24,129 bases of DNA from a virus (taxonomy: Duplodnaviria > Caudoviricetes). The stretch covers positions 1-24,129 of IMG/VR virus record IMGVR_UViG_3300017649_000017; one strand, 5' to 3'. The position numbers and the translations under genes are program-made. The notes under the pieces are model-generated. The model was not told the DNA's origin and made no database searches. It was given only the letters and a program-made list of their open reading frames with translations. This document shows positions 9,958 to 21,304 of this stretch, piece after piece (position 1 is the first letter of the stretch; each line of letters opens with the position of its first letter).

Positions 9958-11367
9958 CTGAACACGCTCAACGTCGAGTACCGCAAGGTCGAGGCGCTGA
10001 TCCCCTATGCCCGCAATCCGCGCACGCACACCGACGAGCAGGTGGCCAAGATCGCCGCCAGCATCGTCGAGTACGGCTGGACGAACCCGGTGCTGGTGGA
10101 CGGCGACAGCGGCATCATCGCGGGCCACGGGCGCTTGGCCGCCGCGCGCAAGCTGGGCTTGGACGAAGTGCCAGTCATCGAACTGGCCCACCTGTCGCCC
10201 ACGCAAAAGCGCGCCTACGTCATCTCCGACAACCGGCTGGCGCTGGATGCAGGCTGGAACGAAGAACTGCTGGCGCTGGAACTGGCCGAGTTGTCCGAAG
10301 CCGGGTATGACCTTGCGCTGACCGGGTTCGAGGATGGGGAGATCGAGGCCCTGCTCGCGGACGACGTGATCGCCGATGAAGGCGACCAAGGCCAGGACGC
10401 CGGTGAATCGGATACGGCCGACGAGGTGCCTGAGACTCCGTTGGTGCCGGTATCTCGCCCTGGCGACGTCTGGGCCATCGGCTCACACCGTCTGATCTGT
10501 GGCGACGCCAGCGACCGCGCCGTGGTCGCCACGCTGATGCAGGGTGACGCGGCACGGCTGTGCTTTACCTCGCCCCCTTATGGCAACCAGCGCGACTACA
10601 CGTCGGGCGGCATCGCCGATTGGGACGGCCTGATGCGCGGCGTGTTCGGCAACGTGCCGATGGCCGACGACGGCCAGGTGCTGGTCAACCTCGGGCTGAT
10701 CCACCGCGACAACGAGGTCATTCCATATTGGGATGCGTGGCTCGGTTGGATGCGCACGCAAGGATGGCGGCGTTTCGCGTGGTACGTCTGGGATCAGGGG
10801 CCGGGCATGCCCGGCGACTGGGCGGGCCGCTTCGCGCCGAGCTTCGAATTCGTCTTTCACTTCAACCGCACCAGTCGCAAGCCCAACAAGATCGTCCCCT
10901 GCAAGCACGCAGGCCAGGAGTCCCACTTGCGCCCCGACGGCTCGTCCACGGCGATGCGCGGCAAGGATGGCGAGGTCGGCGGCTGGACGCACAAGGGCCT
11001 GCCGACGCAGGACACCCGGATTCCCGACTCGGTGATCCGCGTGATGCGCCACAAAGGCAAGATCGGTCAGGACATCGACCACCCCGCCGTCTTCCCGGTC
11101 GCGCTGCCGGAGTTCGTCATCGAGGCCTACACCGACGCGGGGGACATCGTGTTCGAACCCTTCGGCGGCAGCGGCACGACGATGCTGGCGGCCGAGCGCA
11201 CCGGTCGTGTCTGTCGCACCGTCGAGATCGCGCCGGAGTACGTGGATGTCGCCGTTCGGCGCTTCCAGCAGAACCATCCCGGCGTGCCCGTCACGCTGCT
11301 GGCCACAGGCCAGTCCTTCGACGACGTTGCCAAGGAACGTCTGGCCACCACGGAGGCCGCGCAATGA
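9958..11367 (+). CDS. ParB-N domain + beta-class DNA methyltransferase (SPPY motif, probable m4C), probable CTG start, 469 aa
   Basis: LIPYARNPRTH...IIAGHGRLAAA ParB/Srx motif; LICGD, FTSPPY, HPAVFP, EPFGGSGTT; GAGGA SD 7 nt before CTG 9958. Confidence 0.9.
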   Translation: MNTLNVEYRKVEALIPYARNPRTHTDEQVAKIAASIVEYGWTNPVLVDGDSGIIAGHGRLAAARKLGLDEVPVIELAHLSPTQKRAYVISDNRLALDAGWNEELLALELAELSEAGYDLALTGFEDGEIEALLADDVIADEGDQGQDAGESDTADEVPETPLVPVSRPGDVWAIGSHRLICGDASDRAVVATLMQGDAARLCFTSPPYGNQRDYTSGGIADWDGLMRGVFGNVPMADDGQVLVNLGLIHRDNEVIPYWDAWLGWMRTQGWRRFAWYVWDQGPGMPGDWAGRFAPSFEFVFHFNRTSRKPNKIVPCKHAGQESHLRPDGSSTAMRGKDGEVGGWTHKGLPTQDTRIPDSVIRVMRHKGKIGQDIDHPAVFPVALPEFVIEAYTDAGDIVFEPFGGSGTTMLAAERTGRVCRTVEIAPEYVDVAVRRFQQNHPGVPVTLLATGQSFDDVAKERLATTEAAQ

Positions 11368-12632
11368 ACGCCTCCTGGTTGGCCGACAAGATCGAGCAGT
11401 GGCCGACGGCCAAACTGCTGCCCTACGCCCGCAACGCGCGCACCCACTCGGAAGAACAGGTCGCGCAGATCGCCGCCTCGATTGCCGAGTTCGGATTCAC
11501 CAATCCGATCCTGGCCGGCAGCGACGGCGTGATCGTGGCCGGGCATGGACGGCTCGCCGCTGCACAGAAGCTCGGACTGGAAATCGTCCCGGTAGTCGTG
11601 CTCGACCATCTGAGCCCGACGCAGCGCCGGGCGCTGGTCATCGCGGACAACCGCATCGCCGAGAACGCCGGCTGGGATGACGCGATGCTGCGCATCGAGA
11701 TCGCGGCCCTGCAGGACGATGACTTCGACCTGTCGCTGACCGGCTTCGATGCCGATGCGCTGGCCGAGTTGATGGCGGGCGATGAGCCGGAGGGCGAAGG
11801 TCAGTCCGACGACGATGCCGTGCCCGAGGTGGCCGAGACGCCGGTCTCGCGCCCGGGCGACGTCTGGCTGCTCGGTGGTCATCGCCTACTGTGCGGCGAC
11901 TCCACCCTGGCCGAAAGCTACGAGCGCGTGCTGGACGGCGAGCAGGTGGACATGGTCTTCACCGATCCGCCGTACAACGTCAACTACGCCAACAGCGCCA
12001 AGGACAAGATGCGCGGCAAGGATCGCGCGATTCTGAACGACAACCTCGGCGACGGCTTCTACGACTTCCTGCTAGCGGCGCTGACGCCGACCATCGCGCA
12101 TTGCCGGGGCGGCGTCTACGTGGCGATGTCGTCCAGCGAGCTCGACGTACTCCAGGCCGCGTTCCGCGCCGCCGGTGGTCATTGGTCGACGTTCATCATA
12201 TGGGCCAAGAACACCTTCACGCTGGGCCGGGCCGACTACCAGCGCCAGTACGAACCGATCCTGTACGGATGGCCCGAGGGTGCGCAGCGCCACTGGTGCG
12301 GCGACCGTGACCAGGGCGACGTTTGGAACATCAAGAAGCCGCAGAAGAACGATCTGCATCCGACGATGAAGCCGGTGGAGTTGGTCGAGCGCGCCATCCG
12401 CAATTCGAGCCGCCCCGGCAACGCGGTGCTCGATCCGTTCGGCGGTTCCGGCACGACGCTGATCGCCGCCGAGAAGTCTGGACGGCTGGCACGGTTGATC
12501 GAACTCGATCCGAAGTACGTCGATGTGATCGTGCGCCGTTGGCAGGACTGGACTGGCAAACGAGCCACCCGCGAAGCGGATGGCCTGTTGTTCGATCAGG
12601 CGGCGAGCGACTCGTCGGTGATCTCGCAGTGA
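11364..12632 (+). CDS. ParB-N domain + beta-class DNA methyltransferase (DPPY motif, probable m6A), 422 aa
   Basis: ATGA overlap; LLPYARNARTH...IVAGHGRLAAA; LLCGDS, FTDPPYNV, HPTMKP, LDPFGGSGTT. Confidence 0.92.
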   Translation: MNASWLADKIEQWPTAKLLPYARNARTHSEEQVAQIAASIAEFGFTNPILAGSDGVIVAGHGRLAAAQKLGLEIVPVVVLDHLSPTQRRALVIADNRIAENAGWDDAMLRIEIAALQDDDFDLSLTGFDADALAELMAGDEPEGEGQSDDDAVPEVAETPVSRPGDVWLLGGHRLLCGDSTLAESYERVLDGEQVDMVFTDPPYNVNYANSAKDKMRGKDRAILNDNLGDGFYDFLLAALTPTIAHCRGGVYVAMSSSELDVLQAAFRAAGGHWSTFIIWAKNTFTLGRADYQRQYEPILYGWPEGAQRHWCGDRDQGDVWNIKKPQKNDLHPTMKPVELVERAIRNSSRPGNAVLDPFGGSGTTLIAAEKSGRLARLIELDPKYVDVIVRRWQDWTGKRATREADGLLFDQAASDSSVISQ

Positions 12633-13063: not shown

Positions 13064-13423
13064 TCACCCGAGCCGAGCCACGTACCGGGCGTAATCGCCA
13101 CCCTCGGGATTGACGTAGAGGTAGGGGCGTCCCGGTGCGGTGACCTCGACGCAGAGGTAACCATCGCCGGTGCCGCCGCCCTTGCCGCGCAGCCAATCAC
13201 ACGACACCAACAGGCTGCGGGCAAAGGCATCGAATTCGGCAGTGGTGAGTTCCTTGGTTTCGGTGACGTAGATCCTGGTCTGGCCCTGGCCGCCGACCTC
13301 GCCCAGATCGGCGGGCTTGCGGGCAAACGGCAGTCGGACGCCCAGCTCCTCGACCTGGATGGCGTTGTCGCCAACCTGCAGGGTGCGCGGGGTGCGTTCG
13401 ATGGTGATGGTCATGGTGCTCAT
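13064..13423 (-). CDS. Hypothetical protein (119 aa), DUF6329-like C-terminus, cassette gene
   Basis: AAGGAG SD; ...ELTTAEFDAFARSLL...LYVNPEGGDYARYVA. Confidence 0.8.
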   Translation of the reverse strand: MSTMTITIERTPRTLQVGDNAIQVEELGVRLPFARKPADLGEVGGQGQTRIYVTETKELTTAEFDAFARSLLVSCDWLRGKGGGTGDGYLCVEVTAPGRPYLYVNPEGGDYARYVARLG

Positions 13424-13464
13424 TGCAGTTCTCCTTGGCTTGCGTCGTCAATCACGACACCAGC

Positions 13465-16946: not shown

Positions 16947-17153
16947 ATGACCTACACCACCACACAACTCGACGCGCTCAAGCGCGCGCTGGCTACCGGC
17001 GAGCGCCGCGTGAGCTTTGGCGACAAGACGGTCGAGTACCGCTCGGTCGAGGAACTGCAGTCGGCCATCCGCACGGTCGAGGCCGAAGTCGCGCGCGGCG
17101 CGGGCACAAGTCGCAAGCGCCAAATCCGCGTCACCACGGGCAAGGGCTTCTGA
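16947..17153 (+). CDS. Head-tail joining protein (gpW-like), 68 aa
   Basis: LDALKRALATGERRVSFGDKTVEYRSVEEL; between terL and portal. Confidence 0.85.
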   Translation: MTYTTTQLDALKRALATGERRVSFGDKTVEYRSVEELQSAIRTVEAEVARGAGTSRKRQIRVTTGKGF

Positions 17154-18664
17154 TGGCCTGGTTCTCTAAGTTCCGAAGCCTGTTCGGCCAATCGCCCGTC
17201 CACGAAGCCGCTGGCCGAGGCCGTCGCTCGCTTGCCTGGATGCCCGGGAACCCGGGTGCGGTGGCCGCGATGCTAGCGACCAACAGCGAACTGCGCAGCA
17301 AGAGCCGCGACCTCGTCCGTCGCAATGCCTGGGCGCAGGCCGGCATCGAGGCCTTCGTGGCCAATGCGGTGGGTACCGGCATCAAGCCGCAGAGCCTGGC
17401 TGCCGACGAGCACTTCAAGACCGAGGTGCAGGCGCTGTGGCGTGACTGGACGGAGGAAGCCGACGCCGCTGGGCAGACCGACTTCTACGGCCTGCAGGCG
17501 CTGGCCTGCCGCGCGATGCTCGAAGGCGGCGAATGCCTGATCCGGTTGCGGCCGCGTCGCCCGGAGGATGGCCTGGTCGTGCCCCTGCAGCTTCAGTTGC
17601 TGGAGCCCGAGCACCTGCCGATCAGCCTCAACACCGATCTGCCCTCGGGCAACGTGGTGCGCTCGGGCATCGAGTTCGACGGGCTCGGGCGACGCGTGGC
17701 CTACCACCTATACCGTTCGCATCCCGAGGACGGGCGTCTGGCGCCGATGTCGGGCCAGGGCGGGATGGACACGGTGCGCATCGACTCGCGCGAAATCATC
17801 CACCTGTTCCGCGTCCTGCGCCCGGGCCAGATCCGGGGTGAACCGTGGTTGTCGCGGGCGCTGGTCAAGCTCAACGAACTCGACCAGTACGACGACGCCG
17901 AGCTGGTGCGCAAGAAGACCGCCGCGATGTTCGCCGGGTTCGTGACGCGGCAGAACCCCGAGGACAACCTGATGGGCGAAGGCGCCGCCGATAGCGAGGG
18001 CATCGCGCTCGCCGGGCTGGAGCCGGGCACGCTGCAGATTCTGGAGCCCGGTGAGGACATCAAGTTCTCCGACCCGGCGGACGTCGGCGGCTCGTACTCC
18101 GAATTCCTGCGCACCCAGTTCCGCGCAGTCGCCGCCGCCATCGGTATCACCTACGAGCAACTGACCGGCGATCTGACCGGCGTGAACTACTCGTCCATCC
18201 GCGCGGGCCTGCTGGAGTTCCGGCGTCGCTGCGAGATGGTGCAGCACGCCGTGCTCGTCCATCAGCTGTGCCGCCCGGTCTGGGCCGCGTGGATGAAGCA
18301 GGCCGTGCTCGCGGGTGCGCTCGAAGCCCCGGGTTTCGCACGTGGCGGGCCAGCGCGCCGTCGCCAGTACTTGCAGGCGAAGTGGATTCCGCAGGGCTGG
18401 CAATGGGTCGATCCGGAGAAGGAGTTCAAGGCAATGCTGCTGGCCATTCGCGCCGGCCTGATGAGCCGCTCGGAGGCCATCTCGGCCTTCGGCTACGACG
18501 CCGAGGACGTCGACCGCGAGATCGCCGCCGACAACCAGCGCGCCGACGACCTCGGCCTGATCTTCGACTCCGACCCTCGTCGCACGTCCAAGGACGGCGG
18601 CAGTGCCGAGCCGAACAAGAACGCTGCCGACGCCACACAAACCGGCAACTCGCCACCTGCCTGA
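17153..18664 (+). CDS. Phage portal protein, lambda family (503 aa)
   Basis: RSKSRDLVRRN, RPGQIRGEPWL, LTGDLTGVNYSSIRAGLLE, WQWVDPEKE. Confidence 0.96.
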   Translation: MAWFSKFRSLFGQSPVHEAAGRGRRSLAWMPGNPGAVAAMLATNSELRSKSRDLVRRNAWAQAGIEAFVANAVGTGIKPQSLAADEHFKTEVQALWRDWTEEADAAGQTDFYGLQALACRAMLEGGECLIRLRPRRPEDGLVVPLQLQLLEPEHLPISLNTDLPSGNVVRSGIEFDGLGRRVAYHLYRSHPEDGRLAPMSGQGGMDTVRIDSREIIHLFRVLRPGQIRGEPWLSRALVKLNELDQYDDAELVRKKTAAMFAGFVTRQNPEDNLMGEGAADSEGIALAGLEPGTLQILEPGEDIKFSDPADVGGSYSEFLRTQFRAVAAAIGITYEQLTGDLTGVNYSSIRAGLLEFRRRCEMVQHAVLVHQLCRPVWAAWMKQAVLAGALEAPGFARGGPARRRQYLQAKWIPQGWQWVDPEKEFKAMLLAIRAGLMSRSEAISAFGYDAEDVDREIAADNQRADDLGLIFDSDPRRTSKDGGSAEPNKNAADATQTGNSPPA

Positions 18665-18673
18665 AGGTTTCCC

Positions 18674-19909
18674 ATGACCCTGCTTCCCCATTTGGCGGCA
18701 CGCCTCTTTGGTGTGCCGCTGGCGATCCATCGCCCGAAACTTGACGTGATCCTGGCCGTGCTCGGCCCCCGGGTCGGTCTGGCAGATCTGGCCGCACCGA
18801 CCGGCTTCACGCCGCCCACGCGCACCGCGGCCACCGAGACGCCGAAGGTCGCGGTCATCCCGATCCACGGCACGCTGGTGCGGCGCACCGTGGGGCTGGA
18901 AGCCGAATCGGGCCTGACCAGCTACGCGGGGCTCACCGCCCAGCTCGACGCCGCCCTGGCCAGCCCGGATGTCGCCGCGATCCTGCTCGACATCGATTCG
19001 CCCGGTGGCGAGTCGGGCGGCGTGTTCGACCTGGCGGACCGCATCCGTGCCGCGTCCGCTGTGAAGCCCGTGTGGGCGGTGGCCAACGACATGGCCTTCT
19101 CGGCGGCCTACGCACTGGCTTCGGCCGCCAACAAGGTGTTCGTGTCGCGCACCGGCGGCGTCGGCTCGATTGGCGTCATTGCGATGCACATCGACCAGTC
19201 GGAGAAGGACGCCCAGGACGGCGTCCGCTACACGGCGGTGTTCGCCGGCGACCGCAAGAACGACCTCAACCCGCACGAGCCGATTTCGAGCGAGGCCCAC
19301 GCCTTCCTCAAGGCCGAGGTGAATCGCGTCTATGGCTTGTTCGTCGAGACGGTGGCCCGCCACCGGGGCATCGAGCCGTCCGCCGTGCGGGACACCGAAG
19401 CCGGGCTGTTCTTCGGGCAGGCCGCCGTCGCCATCGGGCTGGCCGATGCCGTCGGCACGTTCGATGACGCGCTTGCCCAGCTCTGCGAATCCATTTCCCC
19501 ACTCCCGAATCTGGCGGCAAGCCACTCGGGCTCTTTCCGCAACCTCCAGATGGAGTCTTTCATGAATGATCGAACCCACCCCGCTGCTCCTGATCGGCTT
19601 GCTGCTGATCCTGCTGGCAGTACTTCTCAACCGGCGACCGCCACCGCTTTTGACCTGGCCGACGCCGTCGAAATCGCCCAGACCTGCACCCTGGCCGGGC
19701 GAGCCGACCTGATCGCGGGCTTCCTCGAGGCGCAGGCGTCGCCCGCCAAGGTGCGCAGCCAGTTGCTGGCCGCACAGGCTGAAGCCAGTCCCGAGATCGT
19801 CAGCCGCATCGCCCCCGATGCCGCTGCCTCCACCACCGCCAGCAACCCGCTGCTCGAGGCCGCGAAGCAGCTCGCGGCCAAGTCCGCATCGCTGAAGAAG
19901 GAGATCTGA
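18674..19909 (+). CDS. S49-family capsid maturation protease (lambda gpC-like) with C-terminal scaffold region
   Basis: IPIHGTLV, LDIDSPGGE, AFSAAYALAS, GSIGV, GLADAVGTFDD. Confidence 0.93.
   Translation: MTLLPHLAARLFGVPLAIHRPKLDVILAVLGPRVGLADLAAPTGFTPPTRTAATETPKVAVIPIHGTLVRRTVGLEAESGLTSYAGLTAQLDAALASPDVAAILLDIDSPGGESGGVFDLADRIRAASAVKPVWAVANDMAFSAAYALASAANKVFVSRTGGVGSIGVIAMHIDQSEKDAQDGVRYTAVFAGDRKNDLNPHEPISSEAHAFLKAEVNRVYGLFVETVARHRGIEPSAVRDTEAGLFFGQAAVAIGLADAVGTFDDALAQLCESISPLPNLAASHSGSFRNLQMESFMNDRTHPAAPDRLAADPAGSTSQPATATAFDLADAVEIAQTCTLAGRADLIAGFLEAQASPAKVRSQLLAAQAEASPEIVSRIAPDAAASTTASNPLLEAAKQLAAKSASLKKEI
19562..19909 (+). CDS. Putative nested in-frame scaffolding protein (Nu3-like), 115 aa
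   Basis: GGAG at 19552-19555 then in-frame ATG 19562; Ala-rich helical product; same layout as lambda C/Nu3. Confidence 0.55.
   Translation: MNDRTHPAAPDRLAADPAGSTSQPATATAFDLADAVEIAQTCTLAGRADLIAGFLEAQASPAKVRSQLLAAQAEASPEIVSRIAPDAAASTTASNPLLEAAKQLAAKSASLKKEI
19566..19712 (+). CDS. Putative overprinted small membrane peptide (48 aa) in the +1 frame of the protease gene
   Basis: MIEPTPLLLIGLLLILLAVLLNRRPPPLLTWPTPSKSPRPAPWPGEPT; 15-residue hydrophobic run using mainly CTG/CTC/ATC codons; same GGAG SD 10 nt upstream. Confidence 0.45.
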   Translation: MIEPTPLLLIGLLLILLAVLLNRRPPPLLTWPTPSKSPRPAPWPGEPT

Positions 19910-19910
19910 G

Positions 19911-20291
19911 ATGCCCACTGTGTTCACCGAATCGATGAACTTGGGCGACCTGCTCAAGTACGAGGCCCCGAACCTTTACTCGCGTGACCGCGTCACGGTG
20001 GCCGCTGGCCAGACCCTGCCGCTGGGCGCGGTCGTCGGGATGGTCACCGCCACCGGCAAGGTCAAGCGGATCGACCCCTCGGCCACCGACGGCAGTCAGG
20101 TCGCCGCTGGCGTGCTGATGCAGGCAGTCGATGCCGCCTTGGCCGAGCGCAATGACGGCCTGATGGTGGCGCGTCACGCCATCGTCTCCGACCACGCACT
20201 CTCGTGGCCCACCGGCATCACCACCGCCGAGCAGCAGGCCGCCATTGCCCAGCTCAAAGCGCTGGGTGTCCTCGTTCGCCAAGGAGTCTGA
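19911..20291 (+). CDS. Head decoration protein (gpD-like), 126 aa
   Basis: LGDLLKYEAPNLYSRD, GQTLPLGAVVG, DGSQVAAGVL, QLKALGVLVR; between protease and capsid genes. Confidence 0.9.
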   Translation: MPTVFTESMNLGDLLKYEAPNLYSRDRVTVAAGQTLPLGAVVGMVTATGKVKRIDPSATDGSQVAAGVLMQAVDAALAERNDGLMVARHAIVSDHALSWPTGITTAEQQAAIAQLKALGVLVRQGV

Positions 20292-20293
20292 CC

Positions 20294-21304
20294 ATGCAGA
20301 ACATCTTCGAAAACCCCGCCTTCTCGATGTCGGCGCTGACTGCCGCCATCAACCTGCTGCCGAACAACTACGACCGCCTGGGCGCGATGGGCCTGTTCGT
20401 CGACAAGCCGCAGCGCTTCCGCTCGGTGATCGTCGAAGAGCAGAACGGCGTGCTCACGCTGTTGCCGACGATGCCCCCGGGCTCGCCCGGCACCGTAGGC
20501 GTGCGCGGCAAGCGCAAGGTGCGCTCGTTCACCATCCCCCACATCCCGCACGACGACGTGATCCTGCCCGAGGAAGTCCAGGGCATCCGCGCCTTCGGCT
20601 CGGAAACCGAACTGCAGACCGTCGCGGGGGTGATGGCGCAGCACCTGCAGACGATGCGCAACAAGCACGCGATCACGCTGGAGCATCTGCGCTTCGGGGC
20701 GTTGAAGGGCCAGATCCTCGACGCTGATGGCAGCGTCATCTACGACCTCTACAACGAGTTCGGGATCACGCCCAAGACCTTCACCTTCAACATTTCCAAT
20801 CCGGCCAACGGCTGGGATGTGAAGAAGGCCTGCCTGGATGTCGTCCGCTACGTCGAGGACAACCTGCAGGGCGAACGGATGAGCGGCCTGCATGCCTTCG
20901 TTGGCGAGGATTTCTTCGACGCGCTCACCGGCCACGATGAGGTCAAGGCCGCCTACGACCGCTGGCAGGATGGCCAGGCACTGCGCACCGATATGCGCGC
21001 GGGCTTCACCTTCGCCGGGGTCACCTTCGAGGAGCATCGCGGCCGCGCGGTTGCACCGGGCAGTGCCGTGCGCCGCTTCGTCGAGGCCGACGAGGGCCAC
21101 ATCCTGCCGCTGGGCACGATGGACACCTTCGCCACCTACTACGCGCCGGCCGACTTCAACGAGACGGCCAACACGGTGGCGCTGCCGCTGTACGCCAAGC
21201 AGGAGCCGCGCAAATTCGACCGGGGCACCGATCTGCACACGCAGGCCAATCCGCTGCCGCTGTGCCACCGCCCGGCGCTGCTGGTCAAGCTGGTGATGGC
21301 CTGA
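20294..21304 (+). CDS. Major capsid protein (lambda gpE family), 336 aa
   Basis: AAGGAG SD; FSMSALTAAIN, PHIPHDDVILPEEVQGIRAFG, TLEHLRFGALKG, QANPLPLCHRP. Confidence 0.93.
   Translation: MQNIFENPAFSMSALTAAINLLPNNYDRLGAMGLFVDKPQRFRSVIVEEQNGVLTLLPTMPPGSPGTVGVRGKRKVRSFTIPHIPHDDVILPEEVQGIRAFGSETELQTVAGVMAQHLQTMRNKHAITLEHLRFGALKGQILDADGSVIYDLYNEFGITPKTFTFNISNPANGWDVKKACLDVVRYVEDNLQGERMSGLHAFVGEDFFDALTGHDEVKAAYDRWQDGQALRTDMRAGFTFAGVTFEEHRGRAVAPGSAVRRFVEADEGHILPLGTMDTFATYYAPADFNETANTVALPLYAKQEPRKFDRGTDLHTQANPLPLCHRPALLVKLVMA

Follow-up and report, generated by a model that had tools for sequence, protein, structure and literature searches.

A predicted membrane-peptide gene very probably overprints the protease-scaffold linker of a lambda-type phage head gene

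Does the +1 frame of a phage capsid protease/scaffold gene hold a second gene, one for a membrane peptide, and what might such a peptide do? The window, by which we mean the whole stretch of DNA analysed here (24,129 nucleotides), is a virus record of 24 kb whose lambda-type head module includes a terminase, and the host frame of the +1 ORF is that of a lambda-like gpC (S49 protease/scaffold) gene. The head genes stand in the same order as in lambda, and like lambda C/nu3 the gpC-like gene has a probable internal in-frame scaffold start. The annotated head genes that concern us are the following:

17153..18664, + strand: lambda-family portal gene (PF05136)
18674..19909, + strand: gpC-like capsid protease/scaffold gene, 411 aa (Pfam Peptidase_S49, E 4e-32; phrog_53 head maturation protease, E 1.5e-111)
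19911..20291, + strand: head decoration protein D (PF02924)
20294..21304, + strand: major capsid protein E (PF03864)

The named genomes with close relatives are labelled mostly as Burkholderiales, Rhodocyclales or Xanthomonadales; hosts with the +1 peptide gene include Hydrogenophaga bisanensis (L007), Variovorax defluvii (L039) and Comamonas granuli (L048). Upstream of the head module, at 10042-12632 of the window, lie two neighbouring N6/N4 DNA methylase ORFs, of which the second shows a weak ParB-like match.

The original prediction, made from the letters of the window, held that a single GGAG offers two starts, one in frame at 19562 and one in the +1 frame at 19566, and that the second opens a 48-aa peptide with a single helix, basic residues and a proline-rich tail, encoded by a real overlapping gene. 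The arrangement of the starts is plain in the sequence, where the GGAG is followed by ATG 19562 in the gpC frame and by ATG 19566 in the +1 frame:

19552..19555, + strand: Shine-Dalgarno (SD) motif GGAG, 6 nt 5' of the scaffold ATG and 10 nt 5' of the peptide ATG
19562..19909, + strand: putative Nu3-like scaffold protein of 115 aa, initiated internally and in frame at codon 297 of 411
19566..19712, + strand: overprinted +1 ORF, 48 aa here and 24-33 aa in most relatives
19566..19583, + strand: N-terminal M-x-x-P-x-P segment, net charge -1 (P4 in 151/153, P6 in 149/153; the overlapping frame-0 residues vary)
19584..19628, + strand: hydrophobic core of 15 residues (L7-L21), predicted to form a single transmembrane helix; G11, I15 and A18 are conserved
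19629..19646, + strand: basic C-flank (NRR-PPP), predicted to lie on the cytoplasmic side (charge higher on the C-side than on the N-side in 153/154 carriers)
19650..19652, + strand: usual stop codon position, read as Leu29 in this lineage (homologous +1 stop in 149/154 carriers and 5/20 scored non-carriers)
19650..19712, + strand: lineage-specific read-through tail, unconserved (48-aa form in 3/154 carriers)

The ATG at 19562 is most likely the scaffold start and older than the peptide, since lambda nu3 is nested in frame within C (lambda record NC_001416) and a script scan found an SD-like motif with an in-frame start in all 61 outgroup genes, none of which has the peptide. Its position places an internal SD and start within the C-terminal third of gpC, as in lambda (codon 309), and lambda nu3 is named as a scaffolding protein in one published account (PMC10695390). 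HMM searches with the scaffold part alone (19562..19909) gave no match. The SD lies 6 nt from the scaffold ATG in 154/154 carriers of the peptide (defined below), as against 9 nt in 33/61 outgroup genes; the 10-nt spacing of the peptide ATG is long. In lambda itself (L384, NC_001416, 833) the RefSeq nu3 start is at C codon 239, and the sole in-frame SD plus ATG returned by the scan is the one at codon 309.

No other 15-mer in the six frames of the window is as hydrophobic as the core of the +1 peptide (3.51 on the Kyte-Doolittle scale; the next scores 2.85). This core is uniformly hydrophobic, with no polar face (hydrophobic moment of residues 7-21, 0.05), and at 15 residues is short for a transmembrane helix. 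The runner-up, at 13398-13442 on the + strand, lies on the strand opposite ORF 13064-13423. As had been predicted, the protease-frame codons at 19583-19627 run against the bias of the gene, 13 of 15 ending in T compared with 26 of 296 in its protease part; the best 15-codon windows of nine other genes in the window hold 3-7. In four separate runs, each with 100,000 recodings of the frame-0 linker by genome-wide or 5'-end codon usage, the hydrophobicity was never matched (0 of 100,000 every time). T-ending codons and hydrophobicity must be counted as one fact, because each such T supplies the second base of a +1 codon.

Homologues were collected as 345 loci, which gave 327 full genes and 236 distinct ones, and a carrier was defined by a +1 hydrophobicity of at least 2.4 and a start four bases after the scaffold ATG. 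The peptide was present in 154 of 175 genes with at least 70% protease identity to the window and in none of 61 more distant genes; a second batch of 110 new genes gave 34/50 (at least 69% identity) and 0/60 for the outgroup. Taken together, the two batches comprise 225 distinct in-clade genes, 188 of them with an intact peptide, and 121 outgroup genes, none of them with one. It occurs in two types, that of the window and a shorter one (71-75% protease identity, with a peptide about 40-60% identical to the window's). On a FastTree tree of 81 representatives, with weak basal support and some mosaic genes that show visible recombination, the shorter type is basal and non-carriers are nested among carriers. 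This nesting suggests one gain and at least seven losses, a count that is approximate because of the poor basal support and the mosaic genes; a single de novo origin followed by several losses is likely. With at least seven separate losses the peptide would therefore be dispensable, and the non-carrier lineages retain an ordinary protease and scaffold. A profile search for copies relocated elsewhere in non-carrier genomes matched 5 of 19 genomes; four of these were carriers, and the fifth match was a decayed remnant in the usual position. The sister to the carrier clade, L068 (3400-3500), has a T-rich linker (8/15) and a +1 frame that is partly hydrophobic but lacks a start codon, and may represent a precursor or a remnant. 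Three genes (L105, L190 and L086) join a protease domain and a linker from different subclades, which points to recombination inside gene C near the scaffold start.

Parsimony changes per site were counted in 153 carriers (L248, which has an insertion, was excluded). For frame-0 positions 1/2/3 the overlap gave 7.0/4.2/3.1, the protease 3.7/1.6/13.7, the scaffold core 4.2/1.7/13.8 and the upstream linker 7.7/6.1/10.4, so that third positions in the overlap show about four times fewer changes than the rest of the gene or other gene starts. Codons 291-320 have the lowest third-position rates of the gene, which return to normal just past the ORF. Third positions of the core are 81% T and 0% A. 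The 5' ends (first 22 codons) of C, D and E undergo about 3/1/9.5-11.6 changes per site, with T at 8-18%; because these starts show normal patterns, ordinary start-region bias fails as an explanation.

The start codon of the +1 frame is ATG in 153 of 154 carriers and TTG in one, and ATGAATG is found in 152/154 although AAT makes up 190 of 787 Asn codons (24%). A synonymous change of this Asn codon, which removes the +1 ATG, occurs among natural losers. Residues P4, P6, L7, G11, L14, I15 and A18 are almost fixed, the frame-0 residues beneath most of them vary, and +1 replacements lead to hydrophobic residues in 67 of 100 observed cases versus 43% expected. A carrier definition based on hydrophobicity inflates conservation, and 7 colinear non-carriers were therefore added back. 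Changes to polar residues, Pro or stop then make up 13 of 29 on branches that lost the start or gained an early stop (a class of four sequences in three lineages) versus 40 of 237 on the other branches (p=0.001). Relative to branch length, third-position change rises from 5.7 to 32 on the branches with a lost start or early stop. Against strict selection, the core contains Pro or Ser in three sequences (L116, L253 and L275) whose ATG is retained. Taken as a dual-coding locus, the second frame keeps its start, open frame and stop, and synonymous change in the older frame is suppressed within the overlap only. The alignment of homologues by which the original prediction proposed to be judged, for the ATG, the hydrophobicity and synonymous suppression, thus went in its favour, and strongly supports both the overlapping gene in the linker and the view that the +1 frame is kept by selection on its own amino acids. 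We conclude that this is very probably a real, unnamed, overprinted gene for a predicted membrane peptide.

The predicted peptide kept its hydrophobic run and basic flank on comparison, but not its length or its proline tail. The product is 24-33 aa long in 149/154 carriers, and 48 aa in the window's own lineage. Judged from the aligned relatives, the 48-aa form is a local stop loss, and the Pro-rich tail is therefore not conserved. The Pro run varies along with frame-0 Ala/Thr repeats and does not occur throughout the shorter type, which leaves the first 24 or so residues as the functional unit. Among carriers, 65 of 66 Ser codons at the stop site are AGY (27% baseline), a weak test because non-carriers use AGY too (15/17).

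Database searches placed the peptide in no named family. Scans against Pfam and PHROG gave no match, the ESM Atlas offered no usable one, and tblastn with a 27-aa part found nothing in cultured phages. Among 1.84 billion proteins a profile search returned 7 hits, all unnamed and all either members of the peptide family or apparent fusions; P0005 and P0006, in which the peptide is joined to scaffold-like sequence, are best read as sequencing errors. A few copies on short contigs, all without a name, had been picked up by gene callers. A peptide-pattern scan of viral contigs matched 148 stretches and says little, because only 3 of them passed tblastn. A literature search that covered main texts, chiefly outside the subscription journals, found no description of the peptide; small-ORF catalogues in supplements could list it.

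What, then, might the peptide do? By analogy, our main reading, with a probability of roughly 40%, is that it would be a late, single-pass inner-membrane peptide, a dispensable lysis accessory that binds a membrane protein. On the late head transcript, ribosomes would in all likelihood start mostly on the scaffold at 19562 and sometimes on the peptide at 19566, and this sharing of a start site would tie the dose of peptide to head assembly, in proportion to scaffold. The peptide is predicted to insert in the inner membrane as a single pass, N-out/C-in, where the P-x-P cap and the face of G11, I15 and A18, with small residues 11 and 18 on one side, might form a helix-helix contact. If the peptide is translated, its partner could be a cell-envelope or lysis protein, a guess that we place just short of even odds, and the peptide would then weaken the envelope or shift lysis timing, like phiX174 E or the leviviral Sgl. 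Its position in the late operon, this precedent and the finding of no lipobox ORF near the lysis cassette in 20 of 20 regions favour a lysis accessory over the readings discussed below.

The precedents can be compared in detail. In phiX174, the scaffolding protein gene D contains, in its +1 frame, the gene for the 91-aa E protein. T-ending codons of D yield the Leu-rich membrane segment of E (PMC8227390), and the peptide would likewise be a de novo membrane product, overprinted on an older frame whose T-ending codons give rise to Leu codons. Unlike E, the sole lysis gene of a microvirus, it has only 24-33 residues, is dispensable, shares its SD with the scaffold start, and belongs to a tailed temperate phage with a lysozyme cassette; the Pfam and PHROG scans gave no family match. 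Leviviral Sgl genes are described in one account as small, with an SD and a predicted transmembrane domain, and as lying within weakly conserved stretches of an essential gene, mostly in its +1 frame (PMC7693330). The peptide resembles them, and phiX174 E, as a small embedded +1 ORF with an SD and one predicted transmembrane segment. Sgl phages, however, are RNA phages without an endolysin, whereas an endolysin is found in the relatives here and the lytic activity and target of the peptide are putative.

Those relatives carry a lysis cassette of DUF6127, a 158-aa membrane protein (no Pfam match) and a PF00959 lysozyme, so that, with a lysozyme and two membrane-protein genes present, the peptide cannot be the sole lysis gene in the manner of E or Sgl. 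The cassette is identical in make-up among carriers, losers and outgroups (the lysozyme was not seen in 1 of 20 regions). There is consequently no genetic link between peptide and lysis, and the peptide is at most an accessory. The cassette is very conserved at L345:1-1232 (- strand) and in L356-L375. In G002 (L348:8413-12052), an AAA ATPase-like ORF with a partner gene, which we take to be McrBC-like, lies 3' of the lysozyme together with a transposase-like ORF.

Lambda Rz1, another overprinted late envelope gene, provides a further comparison. The peptide is likewise the predicted envelope product of an overprinted late gene. It has no Cys or lipobox and no periplasmic domain, and its host gene encodes an S49 protease instead of Rz, so the original prediction was right to deny it the status of an Rz1-type o-spanin; no lipobox ORF was found near the lysis cassette in any of 20 regions. 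The phiKT gp28 disruptin is summarised as a 56-aa, cationic, amphipathic peptide from a phage without evident spanins (10.1101/515445). The peptide is similar in its small size and in the absence of evident spanins, and differs in being uniformly hydrophobic (moment 0.05). Lambda C and the corresponding gene of Acidithiobacillus phage AcaML1 differ from the gene described here in having no hydrophobic alternative frame (best 15-mer 1.1 and 1.0, respectively).

After a lysis accessory, the next reading is that the peptide blocks a host membrane protein, either for superinfection exclusion (at a receptor or DNA-entry complex) or to neutralise a membrane-bound defence effector triggered by head proteins. 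The patchy retention with repeated losses, together with the missing link to the lysis cassette, would suit such an accessory host-interaction gene, as would the one-sided conserved face of G11, I15 and A18. Arms-race genes usually vary, however, and the peptide is nearly constant across hosts labelled as Burkholderiales, Rhodocyclales and Xanthomonadales; a crude scan found no internal promoter-like site from which it could be expressed in a lysogen. We consider this, the main rival, somewhat unlikely.

A target-free, membrane-depolarising toxin is improbable. The type I toxins Ibs, TisB, ShoB and DinQ are very short, hydrophobic, single-helix peptides, and at 24-33 strongly hydrophobic residues, well under 60 aa, the peptide might pass for a depolarising toxin like Ibs or TisB. 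It has, on the other hand, no polar face with which to line a pore and no toxin-family match (Pfam, PHROG, and only the 7 unnamed hits of the profile search). The original prediction had raised a type I toxin-like peptide as one possibility, but membership of a type I toxin-antitoxin module found no support: a consensus scan of 18600-20400 gave 0 promoter-like sites on either strand, the two subclades share no RNA structure, third-position variation is normal again just after the ORF, and the peptide, unlike those toxins, is embedded in a late structural gene with no evident promoter or antisense RNA of its own.

Equally improbable is a role in regulating head assembly, in which the peptide would restrain the S49 protease by mimicking a signal peptide, or scaffold synthesis would be throttled by translation of the peptide. 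Hydrophobic signal peptides are cleaved by S49 proteases such as SppA, and the SD common to both starts with its fixed 6-nt spacing would lend itself to throttling. Throttling, however, requires neither a conserved hydrophobic helix nor a charge asymmetry, and the lineages without the peptide have kept an ordinary protease and scaffold.

It is still less probable that the ORF is untranslated and that its T-rich codons reflect a constraint on the nucleic acid, such as a need for weak structure where the scaffold begins, for a hairpin or for an antisense frame. The T-rich stretch does sit directly 3' of a start codon, and a 7-pair hairpin can be drawn in the window's subclade. Yet the bias is to T alone and is absent at the C, D and E starts; four of the seven pairs of the hairpin are disrupted in 11-17 of 47 sequences, with almost no compensation, the joint consensus fold reaches only -1.9 kcal/mol with no RNA structure common to both subclades, and the in-register antisense frame has stops in 26 of 154 sequences and no fixed start. 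The decay of the helix where the +1 ATG is lost also speaks for translation. Finally, a frameshift fusion of protease and helix is ruled out, since the +1 frame has a stop immediately 5' of the ATG and the six bases that follow the GGAG vary.

The same linker hints at having produced peptides more than once. In a different, outgroup gpC lineage it contains an unrelated +1 ORF of 26 aa with its own GGAG, intact in 8 of 9 sequences (L501:1757, L506:1066, L489:1623; L546-L549, L582-L586), whose product is cationic and rich in Trp and Arg (charge +6 to +8). In this small sample, 1 extra third-position allele was seen in its 15 codons versus 16 in 30 control codons, and it is possibly an independent overprinted peptide. 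One could go further and propose that the linker behind the Nu3-type start, under loose constraint and with a single ribosome site serving two frames, is a cradle for new membrane-active late genes of tailed phages, with at least two births, and that the hydrophobic peptide is an Sgl-like inhibitor of a conserved envelope protein in phages without evident spanins, although we regard this broader idea as unlikely.

The locus may offer a clean and datable example of a gene born de novo in a dsDNA prophage: outgroups do not have it, two diverged subclades keep it, and in natural knockouts it decays. Its start, with one SD serving two frames, would be an unusual way of tying a membrane peptide to capsid production. 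If it is true that the peptide targets an envelope protein, it would add a family of 24-residue inhibitors that annotation has overlooked.
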